Shown in pieces: positions 12,750 to 28,266 of a stretch of DNA of 29,139 nucleotides. Position 1 is the stretch's first letter; each line of letters starts with the position of its first letter. The notes beneath the pieces were generated by a model. That model had not been told where the DNA came from and did no database searches. It saw only the letters and a program-made list of their open reading frames with translations. The position numbers and the translations under genes were made by a program. Source of the DNA: a virus. Lineage: Duplodnaviria > Caudoviricetes. Where the stretch lies: positions 1-29,139 of the IMG/VR virus record IMGVR_UViG_3300029930_000011, one strand, 5' to 3'.

Positions 12750-12822
12750 TACCCGTGGACAGATTCGAACTGTCGCTTGAACGATTTTAAGTCGTTTGCC
12801 TCTTCCGCTGGGCTACACGGGC
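12750..12822 (-). tRNA. trnL: tRNA-Leu(TAA), 73 nt, short variable loop, CCA not encoded
   Basis: GCCCGTG TA GCC CAGCGGAAGA GGC A AACGA CTTAAAA TCGTT CAAGC GACAG TTCGAAT CTGTC CACGGGT A. Confidence 0.9.
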
Positions 12823-12827
12823 GTAGG

Positions 12828-12900
12828 TGCTCCTTGTGGGGAACGATCCCACCTCTGCCGAATTATGAGTTCGGTGCATTCACCAGATTGCTAAAGGAGC
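12828..12900 (-). tRNA. tRNA with CAT anticodon, probably Ile2 (lysidine) rather than Met
   Basis: GCTCCTT TA GCA ATCTGGTGAA TGC A CCGAA CTCATAA TTCGG CAGAG GTGGG ATCGTTC CCCAC AAGGAGC A. Has C4:G69 and C5:G68 as in Ile2 and no initiator hallmarks. Confidence 0.8.
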
Positions 12901-12903
12901 GGG

Positions 12904-12991
12904 AGGAGAGATCCATACAGTGAAACAGAAGCGCACAATAAGTCATAGGACTGTTTCATTCCGACTTACAGGCAGGGTTTTTCACTCTCCT
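12904..12991. ncRNA. Putative structured RNA with pseudoknot, family unknown
   Basis: Outer stem AGGAGAG(12904-10)/CTCTCCT(12985-91); inner stem TGAAACAG(12921-28)/CTGTTTCA(12951-58); loop TAAGTC(12939-44) complementary to GACTTA(12963-68). Confidence 0.55.
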
Positions 12992-12998
12992 TTTTTCA

Positions 12999-13050
12999 AG
13001 TAGGTTTCCTGTTGCTTATCCTTTAAAACCCACTACAAAATGGATAAGCA
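12999..13050 (-). ncRNA. H-type pseudoknot RNA, candidate abiF-like motif
   Basis: Perfect 9-bp stem UGCUUAUCC/GGAUAAGCA; loop AGUGGGUUUU pairs with downstream GAAACCUACU (10 bp, 2 G-U, which work only on the minus strand). The family name is from recollection and unverified. Confidence 0.6.
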
Positions 13051-13052
13051 GA

Positions 13053-13140
13053 TACGAGTGCCTGGATTCGAACCAGGTCAAAGCCGCTAATCTGGCGGAA
13101 AGAGTTTATAAGACTCCTCTGACTACCAAGTCTCACTCGC
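13053..13140 (-). tRNA. Non-canonical tRNA with TAT anticodon (nominal Ile), 88 nt, long variable arm
   Basis: GCGAGTG A GAC TTGGTA GTC AGA GGAGT CTTATAA ACTCT TTCCGCCAGATTAGCGGCTTTGA CCTGG TTCGAAT CCAGG CACTCGT A. Confidence 0.8.
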
Positions 13141-13150
13141 AATACAAATA

Positions 13151-13324
13151 CTACTGAGCCTCGTTGTTTAACTCGGTGTGTATTCGTATCAAATCTTCAT
13201 CTGCGGGCATCATCACTGCTGCCTGCCCGTCATCGTTGATGATACCTATGCGCTCACCGTTTTCTACACGAGTCATAAGTTCATCCCATCGTTCTTGAAA
13301 CTCTTCCACGGTAAAAACTTCCAT
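13151..13324 (-). CDS. Phd/YefM antitoxin-like protein, 57 aa; not in the ORF track
   Basis: MEVFTVEEFQERWDELMTRVENGERIGIINDDGQAAVMMPADEDLIRIHTELNNEAQ follows the Phd/YefM beta-alpha-alpha-beta-beta pattern (ELxxRVENGExIxI...AVMMP); TAATG coupling to the upstream ORF. Confidence 0.7.
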   Translation of the reverse strand: MEVFTVEEFQERWDELMTRVENGERIGIINDDGQAAVMMPADEDLIRIHTELNNEAQ

Positions 13325-13524
13325 TAGTTATCATAGATAGCAAGATCCGCATACTCAATCTGTTCAGGATCCAGTTGATCGGTTACCACTTCAAGAACGT
13401 TCATAAACTCTTCAACAGTCTCACATTCTACCAGACGCTCGCTGCCTTGATCACTCAACAGCAGGAAGGTGCGGGTGCAGACATCAATCACAATACCTTG
13501 AACGGCTTCTTGTGCGGTGCTCAT
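13324..13524 (-). CDS. Small acidic hypothetical protein, 66 aa
   Basis: First gene after a perfect sigma70 promoter; stop overlaps the next start; 15 D/E versus 2 R and no K. Confidence 0.8.
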   Translation of the reverse strand: MSTAQEAVQGIVIDVCTRTFLLLSDQGSERLVECETVEEFMNVLEVVTDQLDPEQIEYADLAIYDN

Positions 13525-13549
13525 CGGGGGTTTTCTTGATTACCTGAAT

Positions 13550-13578
13550 ATTATATAGGGTCTTGGGGCGGGTGTCAA
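13550..13578 (-). promoter_or_regulatory. Perfect-consensus sigma70 promoter
   Basis: TTGACA (13578-13573), 17-bp spacer CCCGCCCCAAGACCCTA, TATAAT (13555-13550). Confidence 0.9.
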
Positions 13579-19747: not shown

Positions 19748-21700
19748 TTATGTGTATGCTAGATCTAGTAAAAGTTTTTGTGCTATCATTCTATTTAACG
19801 GAATTTCATCGGATCCCATAATATTTAAACCTCCACTTTCACCACCACCCATTGATATTTGCTGTTGAGGTTGTTGTGAAGGTAAGGGAATAAAGATAGT
19901 CTGTCCTCTTCTTTCTTGTGCCAGTTGCTGTTCTTGCTGTTGCTTTTGCTCTGCAGTAAGTCCTTGAACCTGAGCTGCTGATATTTGAGTTCCTCGTTGG
20001 ACGGCAGCAGCTGCTCCTGTTTTCCTACCAATGTCCAAAAGATTTAAATATGGTTTTGGATTAATAGGTCTTCCATTGGGACGAACCTCATAATGTAAGT
20101 GTATTCCCGATGACACACCAGTATTGCCTATTTCACCGATCACTTCACCATTATATGCTCTACCTTTTTGAACCATTATTCTTGCGAGGTGTGCAAAATA
20201 ATAGTCAGTGTTGCCTGATTTAATGATTACAAGATTTCCATAACCACCAAAAACTCCAGCAAATATCACTGTACCAGATGCTTTGAATCCAACATACCAT
20301 CCAGTTTGTCCACCGGTATTAATATCAATACCTGCATGACTTCTCCCACCTCTTCTTGGAGCCCCATATAATCCACCTTTTTCGGTTAGATTGACAGTTT
20401 TTGTTCCACCAGCAGCAATATTGACAGTATCAACTACGGAACTTCTTCCAGTTACTGCTGGAGATGGAGGCACTGCTGCGGGTAAATTAAATGGAGCTGG
20501 ACCTTCTTTTCTAATAGGATCTCCTCTATTTGGATCTGTAAGAAACTGATTATCACCTGCACCACCACGCCATGCAGTTCCAGGGAGACGACCATTCGGA
20601 TTATTTTGTGGAGATGCTCTAAAATCAAATGCTCCACCAACAAATTTTGCAGAGTTTGCTTGTAAAGTTGGATTTTGAATGTCTGAAATAATTCTCAAAA
20701 GAGTTGCTTTACTTTGTCCTGACCACTTAGCAGCATCTTCTAATGTTTGAATTTGTCTAAATGCTTTTGGACCACCAGGTCTTTTCCATACTCCCTCAAA
20801 TGCTACATTCTTTCCACCAGTTCCAGCAGAAAGAATGTCCGTATAAGTTGCACCATATCTCCCAGATGCTTTTCTATTCACAACAACTTGCATCATATCA
20901 ACGGTCGATTGTGGACCACTTCCTTCCGTAGCAAGAGCAGCAGCAATCCGATACATTTCTGCAGATTTAGGATCTGGTAACCCAGTTCCAGGCAAACCAG
21001 GTTCCACATCAGGTGGCGCTGCTGGTTGTCCTGTTTCATCAATGTCAAGTTGATCAAATCCAAGGTTCAATGGTTGAGATAAAAGATTGATTGCAATATC
21101 AAAACTTCTTTCCATACCTAAGAAACCAGTTTGAATTTGATTGAGACCATTTTGAATTTGTTGATTTTGACTATCAAAATCAAATGTAATTAAACTTCTA
21201 AATGCTCCAGTGATTAATGTTCCAAATCCAGAAAGTGATGTCGTTAAACCAGACACAAATCCTCTAAGAACTCCAACCAAACTAACAATTCTTCGTATGA
21301 GTTGTTCTCCTAATTTAATAATGGTTGGTAAGTTTATCAGTAACCAACCAACCATCAAAGTTCCAACAAAATCTATTATTCTTCCTAGAAACCCCTTTGT
21401 ACTATTAGAAATAACTTTTCCTTGTCTTTTAATTGCACCACCAATTCCAGAGGCTTCAACGATATCTTCTCTTTCTCTTCTTCTTACTGCCTCTCTTCTT
21501 TTTTGAAAATTTGTTTTATCAAAACTTAGTGCTTGCCTTCTTTCACGATTTGCTAAAGTTAATCGTTTATTTGTTTTAAGTGTTGATTTTTGAGCACTAT
21601 CAAGACTTTTATTAAAAGAATTCACAGACTTACTAATATTCGCCACTCCTATTGAAGATCTAATAAGAGTTCTTTGAACTTGCTGCGTTGTTGCTGCCAT
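19748..21700 (-). CDS. Tape-measure-like tail protein with SleB/Hydrolase_2-like and M23 peptidase domains
   Basis: Coiled-coil/amphipathic N-third; ALATEG...QVVVNR; M23 Zn motifs HAGID, YFAHL and HLHYEV. Confidence 0.8.
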   Translation of the reverse strand: MAATTQQVQRTLIRSSIGVANISKSVNSFNKSLDSAQKSTLKTNKRLTLANRERRQALSFDKTNFQKRREAVRRREREDIVEASGIGGAIKRQGKVISNSTKGFLGRIIDFVGTLMVGWLLINLPTIIKLGEQLIRRIVSLVGVLRGFVSGLTTSLSGFGTLITGAFRSLITFDFDSQNQQIQNGLNQIQTGFLGMERSFDIAINLLSQPLNLGFDQLDIDETGQPAAPPDVEPGLPGTGLPDPKSAEMYRIAAALATEGSGPQSTVDMMQVVVNRKASGRYGATYTDILSAGTGGKNVAFEGVWKRPGGPKAFRQIQTLEDAAKWSGQSKATLLRIISDIQNPTLQANSAKFVGGAFDFRASPQNNPNGRLPGTAWRGGAGDNQFLTDPNRGDPIRKEGPAPFNLPAAVPPSPAVTGRSSVVDTVNIAAGGTKTVNLTEKGGLYGAPRRGGRSHAGIDINTGGQTGWYVGFKASGTVIFAGVFGGYGNLVIIKSGNTDYYFAHLARIMVQKGRAYNGEVIGEIGNTGVSSGIHLHYEVRPNGRPINPKPYLNLLDIGRKTGAAAAVQRGTQISAAQVQGLTAEQKQQQEQQLAQERRGQTIFIPLPSQQPQQQISMGGGESGGLNIMGSDEIPLNRMIAQKLLLDLAYT

Positions 21701-26985: not shown

Positions 26986-27687
26986 ATGTCATACTTTAGA
27001 GAACTACCAGATTTAGAATACCAATCACCTTTACCAGATAAAATTTCTTCTAGAGAGTATGTGAGAGTTAAAAATTTATTTCGTAGAGTTAAACTTTTGG
27101 ATTGGTTGCAAGATAAAGCAACTCTATACAATAAGTATCAGATCTTAGAAGGTGAAAGACCTGATACTGTTGCCGAAAAAGTTTATGGTCGTTCGGACTA
27201 TGATTGGATTATTCTGCTGACCGCCAATATTATTAATGTGAGAGATCAGTGGCCACTTTCAAATAAAGACTTATATACATTTGTTGAGAACAAATATGGT
27301 TCTACAAAAATCAATGATATTCATCATTATGAAACGATTGAAGTTAAAGATAGTAAAGGAAGATTAGTTCTTCTTAAAAATCAAATTGTTGATTTGAATT
27401 TCACTATCAATGTTCCCTATAACGAAACTTATACTGGATTTCGTACTTATGGTAATATTTCATATGCACCAGATACAAATGGGAACATTAATCCAGTTAT
27501 AGGTATTTCTAATTATGAATATGAAGTTGAAAAGAATGAAAAGAAGAGACAAATTTATATTCTTAAATCAATCTACTTACAACAGTTTATTAATGATATG
27601 AGAGTTGTTATGAACTATGATCAGAGTTCTCAATACATTGATAGTAAGTTAATCCGTACAGAGAACACTCGTCTCATCGGTCCATAA
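26986..27687 (+). CDS. gp53: Baseplate wedge subunit gp53 (LysM-like)
   Basis: MSYFRELPDLEY...EGERPDTVAEKVYG...DWIILLTANI...QWPLS...HHYET...NYEYE..NE.KRQI.ILK. Confidence 0.92.
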   Translation: MSYFRELPDLEYQSPLPDKISSREYVRVKNLFRRVKLLDWLQDKATLYNKYQILEGERPDTVAEKVYGRSDYDWIILLTANIINVRDQWPLSNKDLYTFVENKYGSTKINDIHHYETIEVKDSKGRLVLLKNQIVDLNFTINVPYNETYTGFRTYGNISYAPDTNGNINPVIGISNYEYEVEKNEKKRQIYILKSIYLQQFINDMRVVMNYDQSSQYIDSKLIRTENTRLIGP

Positions 27688-28266
27688 TAGTTTCAGTTTC
27701 TTATCAAACATCATCACATAACGGTGCTTACGGGAGCGTTCTCTCCATTCTCCCTCGGCACCTTTTACTTTGCCTCTTGAATGTTTGGTGCCGTCTGAAT
27801 AATAGAAATCTTTCTTTGCGTCTGTAAGACCGCAATATTTAAAGTTACAAGCACGATAGATTGTACCGCTATGAAAGTCGCTATCAGCATAAGATATAAT
27901 CGCTGAGACCTCTGTGTCTTTGCGAAACTGTCTAATCGCTTTTGCAACGAACCAAGAAGTAATGTTGTACTCCTGTGACTGGATATCTGGGTGGATGCAA
28001 AGTCTTGAGAGTTCGAAGAGTCCTTGCTGTTGGTTTCGTTCAAGACCAAATGCTCCTTTTGCTATTTCTGGAACTGGAAGTCCTGTGAAGATGCAGACTC
28101 CCTGCAAACCACCAATATTTAGTGGAGAGTACTCATTTTTCTTGAAAAGACCATAGTTGTATCCAGACTTAAATCCTTTGGATATGTCCTTCAGGTAATG
28201 ATATTTGAGCAGCAGTTCCCCTGCTTGTTGCTTGGTAATTCGGTCAATGTAAAAATCCGACTTCAT
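27649..28266 (-). CDS. Mom-family (GNAT-like) putative DNA adenine modification enzyme
   Basis: KYHYL, FELSRLC and IISYADSDFHSGTIYRACNF match the Mom-family pattern. Confidence 0.75.
   Translation of the reverse strand: MKSDFYIDRITKQQAGELLLKYHYLKDISKGFKSGYNYGLFKKNEYSPLNIGGLQGVCIFTGLPVPEIAKGAFGLERNQQQGLFELSRLCIHPDIQSQEYNITSWFVAKAIRQFRKDTEVSAIISYADSDFHSGTIYRACNFKYCGLTDAKKDFYYSDGTKHSRGKVKGAEGEWRERSRKHRYVMMFDKKLKLLWTDETSVLCTD

Follow-up and report, generated by a model that had tools for sequence, protein, structure and literature searches.

A conserved cyanophage tRNA cassette with a GAU-armed tRNA-Ile(UAU) and an optional 150-nt structured RNA

Organization and conservation of the cassette

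The window (the whole 29-kb stretch of DNA that was analyzed) is a piece of a T4-like cyanophage genome and makes up its entire sequence record; its best DNA matches are the Synechococcus phages S-SRM01 and S-SKS1. A tRNA cassette occupies positions 12750 to 13578 of its minus strand, between baseplate genes and a long tail-fiber gene, and the flanking baseplate and tail genes lie on the same strand. From the promoter to the conserved 3' neighbor, the following features were identified.

13550..13578, minus strand: perfect sigma-70-type promoter (TTGACA-17-TATAAT); sole perfect site in the window, with 0.05 expected from base composition
13324..13524, minus strand: acidic protein, 66 aa; profile matches to DUF7294 (Pfam) and phrog_662
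13151..13324, minus strand: predicted Phd/YefM-fold protein, 57 aa, acidic, ATA-rich, with a conserved C-terminal tail; phrog_375, "Phd-like antitoxin"
13053..13140, minus strand: atypical 88-nt tRNA-Ile(UAU), from tRNA prediction
13084..13098, minus strand: second arm of the tRNA(UAU), a stem whose loop bears GAU; covariation at 2 of its 4 stem pairs
12901..13050, minus strand: 150-nt structured RNA ("module A"), from covariation; no Rfam family
12826..12900, minus strand: tRNA(CAU), from tRNA prediction; likely a tRNA-Ile2 (lysidine type, reading AUA)
12750..12822, minus strand: tRNA-Leu(UAA), 73 nt, from tRNA prediction; short variable loop
12412..12717, minus strand: phrog_4134 open reading frame (ORF), conserved 3' neighbor of the cassette, from a profile match and recurrent synteny

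The original prediction had described a perfect promoter amid late structural genes, followed by a 66-aa acidic ORF, a coupled Phd/YefM-like ORF and tRNAs with UAU, CAU and UAA anticodons, and each of these elements was recovered in its place. The acidic ORF contains 15 D/E against 2 K/R residues and shares one base (TAATG) with the Phd-like ORF. No terminator was found between tRNA-Leu(UAA) and the phrog_4134 ORF. The exact TATAAATA late promoter was absent from the whole window, which holds mostly structural genes. Elsewhere in the window, a gene for a Mom-like DNA modification protein (27649-28266, minus strand) adjoins gp32, and a tail protein with a peptidase domain is encoded at 19748-21700 (minus strand).

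Of 90 relatives, 77 have a promoter similar to TTGACA-17-TATAAT ahead of DUF7294. In addition, a TAAATA late-type motif was located near the start of the Phd-like gene in 64 of 90 relatives, a sigma-70 site ahead of the UAU tRNA in 24 of 139 and an extra one ahead of the UAA tRNA in 36 of 71. The one-promoter layout is thus the version of this phage's lineage; many relatives have a cassette divided by putative internal promoters. Cyanomyoviruses have been reported to use early and late promoters that overlap (PMC2984593). In several loci (L017, L088, L102 and others), the internal promoter before tRNA-Leu(UAA) is itself an inverted repeat, possibly an operator or a hairpin.

The order DUF7294, Phd-like gene, tRNA(UAU), tRNA(CAU), tRNA(UAA), phrog_4134 recurred across 162 mapped loci, which were fetched via the two proteins or by DNA likeness and from which 71 distinct cassettes were drawn. 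The closest association was that between the Phd-like gene and the tRNA(UAU). The tRNA began no more than 70 nt 3' of the gene in 147 of 184 unique Phd-like genes and lay within 700 nt in 4, and no such tRNA was present in 33; these 184 are the genes with at least 150 nt of downstream sequence, distant loci included, and 7 of 191 were dropped for lack of room. The same adjacency is seen in S-SM2, SynMITS9220M01 and RB11-B and in the distant S-TIM54, whereas S-SCSM2R lacks it. DUF7294 precedes the Phd-like gene in 95 of the 147 cases with an adjacent tRNA(UAU). In S-SM2, DUF7294 is encoded at 21.6 kb and the Phd-like gene at 142.3 kb, 120 kb apart, and the two genes are unlinked in marine phages. 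As the pairing of the Phd-like gene with the tRNA(UAU) is kept while DUF7294 and the promoters vary, these two genes form the core of the cassette.

The slot occupied here by the 150-nt RNA proved variable. Among the 71 cassettes, it held the 150-nt RNA (module A) in 2, an 80-nt module B in 4, a 78-nt module C in 10 and inserts longer than 700 nt in 28, and in S-SRM01 it contains an HNH gene. The cargo of the slot is interchangeable, and the 150-nt RNA is an accessory outside the core. The 80-nt element (L102:3478-3557) is identical in 6 loci. The 78-nt element, located between the CAU and UAA tRNAs (L116:3714-3791, L056:3352-3428 and 8 more distinct copies), contains a stem that closes it, further stems inside and a likely pseudoknot, and had no Rfam match when L116 or L102 was checked. 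A further unannotated element is common to S-SKS1 (L002:3353-3488) and S-SM2 (L416:870-942), between tRNA genes of these isolated marine cyanophages. A short palindromic hairpin (TATTCG, 5 to 10 nt, CGAATA) is repeatedly found next to tRNAs and HNH inserts, with 68 strand matches across the loci, and in L004, L012 and L046, for example, it lies directly 3' of the UAU tRNA. One contig (L440) contains two tandem units of Phd-like gene, tRNA(UAU) and tRNA(CAU). Near the cassettes of L390, L404 and L490, tRNAs with an ATA anticodon were called, possibly UAU tRNA variants or miscalls.

The two-armed tRNA-Ile(UAU) and a probable supply of AUA and UUA decoding

In 31 variants of the tRNA-Ile(UAU), the 27 predicted pairs were 99.5% paired and 17 showed two-sided changes. 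The molecule has a 7/5 acceptor-T branch, in which the 7-bp acceptor and the 5-bp T stem both covary, a single base between the acceptor and the D stem, a 4-bp D stem closing a 4-nt D loop, and an anticodon stem of 7 bp; an extra hairpin of 4 bp is present as well. The anticodon loop, with its 7 nt including UAU, is canonical, and together with A73 it conforms to a cloverleaf. The loop of the extra hairpin likewise has 7 nt, with GAU at positions 3 to 5, which is the register of the anticodon in a normal tRNA-Ile(GAU).

The GAU arm loop was present in 21 of 21 long UAU tRNAs, compared with 0 of 90 long-armed Leu, Ser and Tyr tRNAs, in loci fetched without use of the motif; the 21 group into about three related scaffolds. 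Among matches to a GAT pattern, 55 of 99 in genome records of bacteria and archaea were tRNA-like, as were 76 of the 120 viral matches listed. As these scans demand GAT, they indicate the breadth of GAU-armed tRNAs rather than the invariance of the motif. Carriers include Pyrinomonadaceae arrays and Nostoc. The arm is not required, as a plain UAU tRNA without it is present in 41 of the 71 cassettes.

An alternative fold is available to the long tRNA, in which bases 21-24 pair with 58-61 rather than with 40-42 and the GAU hairpin stacks into an equally long arm under the D stem. Both conformers, with the UAU arm or the GAU arm, can pair fully in 31 of 31 variants. The switching pairs are almost invariant, so that their covariation support comes from one sequence, a Nostoc variant that alters position 23 together with both its alternative partners. 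The UAU conformer was calculated to be about 5 kcal/mol more stable by an energy model without coaxial stacking. The alternative pairing was present in only 7 of 68 forms whose anticodon stem has the normal length of 5 or 6 bp.

Pair 4-69 of the tRNA(UAU) is C-G in only 8 of the 31 variants; C4-G69 is an identity element for isoleucyl-tRNA synthetase (IleRS). The IleRS of Escherichia coli charges the UAU anticodon at 1.1% efficiency, and the Trp residue responsible is kept in species that carry tilS (PMC3575796). Because a Trp-type IleRS charges UAU so poorly, the GAU arm would offer a charging route. From its loop register and its distribution, the GAU arm likely aids loading by the host IleRS. 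The tRNA would then fold with either the 7-bp UAU arm or the equal GAU arm, the GAU form being charged and the UAU form decoding. A wider reading would make the Ile tRNAs of phages and tRNA arrays a widespread two-armed switch, in which the GAU arm docks IleRS and the UAU arm reads AUA, bypassing lysidine and TilS, and which is paired in cyanophages with an AUA-gated Phd-fold protein; we regard this general form as doubtful, perhaps a one-in-four proposition. The tRNA-Ile(UAU) of Mycoplasma mobile also uses the UAU anticodon for AUA. There, however, it is the IleRS that is changed (Arg865; PMC3575796), whereas in the phage the tRNA itself differs, with an added GAU arm and a core that is reshaped.

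Alternatively, the long tRNA(UAU) might not be charged with Ile at all, its arm serving as a class II variable arm for LeuRS or SerRS, or the molecule remaining uncharged and diverting IleRS, TilS or an anticodon nuclease as a decoy. Precedent comes from the allo-tRNAs of Acidobacteria, which resemble the phage tRNA in UAU anticodon, long arm and toxin-antitoxin (TA) neighborhood and which either follow Ser or Ala charging rules or are inactive (PMC5389517). However, allo-tRNAs have an 8/4 or 9/3 acceptor/T branch, and the 7/5 branch of the phage tRNA places it outside that class. The core of the tRNA(UAU) is non-canonical, and a weak Rfam likeness to tRNA-Sec was detected (30.6 bits, against 47). 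Against this stand its canonical anticodon loop, the slot that the long form shares with plain UAU tRNAs and the length of the arm loop, which is 7 nt with GAU compared with mostly 3 to 5 nt (140 of 165) in Leu, Ser and Tyr arms. Nor was there any sign of AUA recoding: ATA codons in the window genes aligned mostly with Ile or Val, in 10 of only 15 columns. Overall, we consider a tRNA that is not charged with Ile to be improbable.

The remaining tRNAs fit a role in codon supply. Homologues of the tRNA(CAU) are variously annotated as tRNA-Ile2, tRNA-Ile or tRNA-Met. It carries the pairs G1-C72, C4-G69 and C5-G68, the latter two of which we take to be TilS determinants. A weak match to the Rfam model "Plastid-ycf2" at 12827-12900 on the plus strand is the antisense of this tRNA; judging from gene order, that model presumably overlaps the plastid trnI-CAU. 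The short form of tRNA-Leu(UAA) accounts for 30 of 50 distinct UAA tRNAs in unbiased loci. In L049, L078, L064 and L286, the tRNA-Leu(UAA) gene is broken by an insert of about 250 nt, with a weak group I intron match in L286.

The window has about 37% GC, and ATA occurs 130 times and TTA 198 times in its 25 genes. AUA and UUA codons are scarce in GC-rich picocyanobacteria. By decoding rules, the UAA tRNA would read UUA, and the lysidine-modified CAU tRNA and the UAU tRNA would both read AUA. As these tRNAs serve codons often used by the phage, codon supply can explain the cassette without a toxin. A comparable limitation has been described for phage Syn9 in Synechococcus WH5701, where scarcity of Leu(UAA) tRNA blocks the phage and tRNA loss is a shown route to resistance (PMC11726456). 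This passive resistance involves the same UAA anticodon and likewise has tRNA scarcity limiting phage translation; it differs in that the work concerns Leu and Arg tRNAs, with AUA tRNAs absent and no "Ile" in its main text (PMC11726456).

The 150-nt RNA between the tRNAs

Where the original prediction had seen two structured RNAs, our analysis supports the structure but not the separation. The 150-nt RNA consists of a 5' hairpin (P1), an enclosing helix (P2), a hairpin with a bulge (P3), one covarying pseudoknot and two invariant or near-invariant pseudoknot pairings. Since P2 (columns 60-66 with 146-152) encloses the predicted second RNA and the loop of the first can pair inside it, 12901-13050 is best read as one unit. 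Pattern scans retrieved 36 distinct full copies; 4 are of a short form, and covariation was assessed on the 32 long ones. The 46 pairs were 97.6% paired and 15 of them changed on both sides; in line with the original prediction, the region between the tRNAs is a conserved structured RNA and not plain spacer. None of 500 shuffles reached the real value, and slid controls were 41 to 53% paired with 0 to 3 such pairs. The alignment has a mean column identity of 90%, and the structure was drawn from the same sequences as were tested.

Covariation was detected in P1, P2, P3 and the 3' pseudoknot. The latter, an H-type pseudoknot of columns 93-100 with 128-135, covaries at 4 of 8 pairs and sits in the second predicted RNA; the pseudoknot attributed to the first, a 4-bp pairing in the 5' domain, is invariant in all 32 sequences, so that covariation neither shows nor refutes it. 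A 7-bp pairing of the P1 loop with the 3' domain had one-sided changes only. In the short form, the 5' domain and an enclosing helix are kept and the interior is swapped. In L299, L308 and L321, the 5' domain alone is left and runs into a tRNA-Leu(UAA) whose 5' strand is damaged, in the manner of a deletion.

Among 37 distinct 5' contexts, 24 placed the RNA directly after the UAU tRNA and 9 placed its start 7 nt past a normally spaced promoter; in a tenth promoter context, the spacing has collapsed. The promoter-led copies mostly lie ahead of tRNA-Gly, in another tRNA cluster. From these contexts, the 150-nt RNA is a single mobile RNA gene, with a promoter or a tRNA defining its ends. Its ends, which meet tRNA ends or the promoter, also fit the earlier proposal that tRNA processing releases it, with RNase P and tRNA 3'-end nucleases presumably cutting out the tRNAs and so freeing it. 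Contigs from 8 of 24 RNA runs, all with small shares, provide weak hints only: all 8 cover the UAU tRNA and one 89-nt contig corresponds exactly to 13053-13141. Likewise as weak hints only, X9 alone among the 8 extends into the 150-nt RNA, and three show relatives without it.

The RNA had no Rfam family at E <= 1 (whole window) or E <= 10 (local), where only weak, chance-level rows were returned, and it matched no known self-cleaving ribozyme or riboswitch in Rfam. Searches with blastn against isolate phages gave short chance matches only. With the covariance model R1, neither 5 isolate genomes nor 4 of 5 IMG/VR relatives gave a real match, the four weak matches (E 0.2 to 0.9) being chance-like; the fifth relative contains only the 5' part of the RNA. 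Its motif was also absent from 6 supplementary files of PMC10690425 (Fremin 2023), although the RNA may be among the candidates of that study.

The original prediction cited pseudoknot-RNA antitoxin mimics such as pseudo-ToxI as a precedent. The 150-nt RNA resembles ToxI, pseudo-ToxI and abiF RNA as a small phage RNA with a pseudoknot. It differs from them in being a single copy of 150 nt, with no tandem repeats within 12901-13050 and no match to the Rfam families, ToxI and abiF included. The nearest architecture is the T4 tRNA cluster, which combines early-expressed tRNA genes with the small RNAs RnaC and RnaD of unknown function (PMC9697503). There, RnaC and RnaD are classed as late, whereas the 150-nt RNA is optional, pseudoknotted and moves between two clusters. 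The 5' domain is invariant and rich in single strands, which suggests a protein as its ligand and prompts our guess at a decoy; a stable protein-binding decoy is the role we find most likely, although it is offered tentatively and is the weakest step of the proposed mechanism. RnaC and RnaD are positioned inside the T4 tRNA cluster.

The Phd-like protein and the function of the cassette

The Phd-like ORF scored 21.5 bits against Pfam PhdYeFM (PF02604), below the gathering cutoff of 29.8. Its predicted model (pLDDT 79) has a beta-alpha-alpha-beta-beta N-terminal fold, with P1 Phd, YefM and VapB46 as top matches, and superimposes on the N-domain of P1 Phd with an rmsd of 0.9 A over 41 columns (E 6e-3); the structure search gave no match at E <= 0.001. 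For DUF7294, a confident predicted model yielded no clear or informative fold match in the Atlas or the PDB. The Phd-like protein shares the N-terminal dimerization fold of Phd, YefM and VapB46 antitoxins, but it is 57 aa long, is tied to a tRNA gene and has Glu, Gln and Asp where VapB46 has basic (Arg) positions. The net charge of the family averages -11 (range, -3 to -16). With the basic VapB46 residues turned acidic and a net charge of -11, repressor action is unlikely. The C-terminal motif is kept in distant members.

The original prediction regarded the gene as an orphan antitoxin, and this was confirmed for the three families sought: genes for PIN, Fic/Doc or YoeB toxins were absent from 5 of the 5 related genomes searched, and no cognate toxin gene lies beside the Phd-like gene, whose neighbors are DUF7294 and a tRNA. 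No cellular homologue was confirmed among 194 pattern matches in GTDB genomes, obtained with a close-relative pattern only. These features fit a putative toxin-binding mimic stripped of operator binding, although an AUA-rich gene would be an odd design for a mimic needed at once. The protein would act as a Phd-fold dimer with an acidic surface, probably not binding DNA and most likely gripping a host toxin via its conserved tail. Orphan antitoxins of cyanophage S-CREM1 have already been proposed as anti-TA factors, TA pairs being present in Synechococcus CB0101 (PMC9964418). The orphan state is the same as proposed there; S-CREM1 was absent from the 16 tblastn matches.

The codon usage of the Phd-like gene raises the possibility that it is an AUA sensor, its translation requiring that AUA be read, with either the product or a stalled ribosome tuning the adjoining tRNA-Ile(UAU) in a loop like that of bldA. 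In Streptomyces, bldA provides such a codon-gated loop. ATA accounts for 56 of 150 Ile codons in the Phd-like gene against 255 of 1367 in neighboring genes (34 representatives, 70% clustering), and among Phd-like genes next to a UAU tRNA it makes up 41 of 90 Ile codons, compared with 15 of 60 among the others. A-ending codons other than ATA are not enriched, CGA excepted. The upstream DUF7294 gene shuns both ATA and TTA, with ATA at just 3 of 330 Ile codons in 102 homologues. A motif ATA-CGA-ATA close to the Phd-like stop is nearly fixed, but further non-preferred codons are fixed too. At 60% clustering, the paired test fails, as only 8 of 16 representatives exceed their neighbors in ATA (p 0.20), and the clusters are related. 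S-TIM54 has the tRNA(UAU) but no ATA in its Phd-like gene, and the acidic residues at VapB46 basic sites argue against regulation by repression. We therefore judge the sensor unlikely. Two other candidates were rejected: TTA enrichment in the gene, seen in close relatives, was gone after clustering (14 of 103 against 415 of 1552), and pairing of ATA-CGA-ATA with the tRNA leader, possible in the window, was missing in most relatives.

The original prediction had combined antitoxin mimic, pseudoknot antitoxin RNAs and replacement tRNAs into one immediate-early operon against RNase toxins, for which the perfect promoter, the toxin-free Phd fold, the covarying RNA and the proposed role of phage antitoxins against the CB0101 TA pairs (PMC9964418) can be adduced, but which we consider very unlikely: the 150-nt RNA was present in 2 of 71 cassettes collected irrespective of whether they contain it, DUF7294 is unlinked in S-SM2, internal promoters and TAAATA motifs divide the cassette in relatives, and nothing in the analysis ties any part to an RNase toxin. 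Likewise, what had been put forward as an undescribed system is a common cyanophage tRNA cassette rather than a fixed anti-toxin operon; two of its parts, the GAU-armed tRNA and the optional 150-nt RNA, do appear undescribed. No previous description of either was found in the open literature searched, including parts of PMC7609411, PMC7824862 and a Minerva preprint.

The reading we favor, with somewhat better than even confidence, is that of a conserved cyanophage tRNA cassette that boosts AUA and UUA reading early, with the GAU arm letting the host IleRS load the tRNA(UAU) and the optional 150-nt RNA riding along. Host RNA polymerase would start at the observed consensus promoter. Biochemistry has a gap in the charging of UAU tRNAs where the host IleRS rejects U34, and genes of this kind are carried by hundreds of phages. 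If the GAU arm acts as proposed, the split of synthetase recognition and decoding over two arms would be a new design principle, useful in genetic-code engineering. The 150-nt RNA represents a new covariation-supported family in the tRNA clusters of freshwater-type cyanophages, and further RNAs without a name lie in the spacers of these clusters. Finally, that a Phd-fold gene is so closely tied to tRNA-Ile(UAU) in distant cyanophages points to an unrecognized host pressure on AUA decoding.
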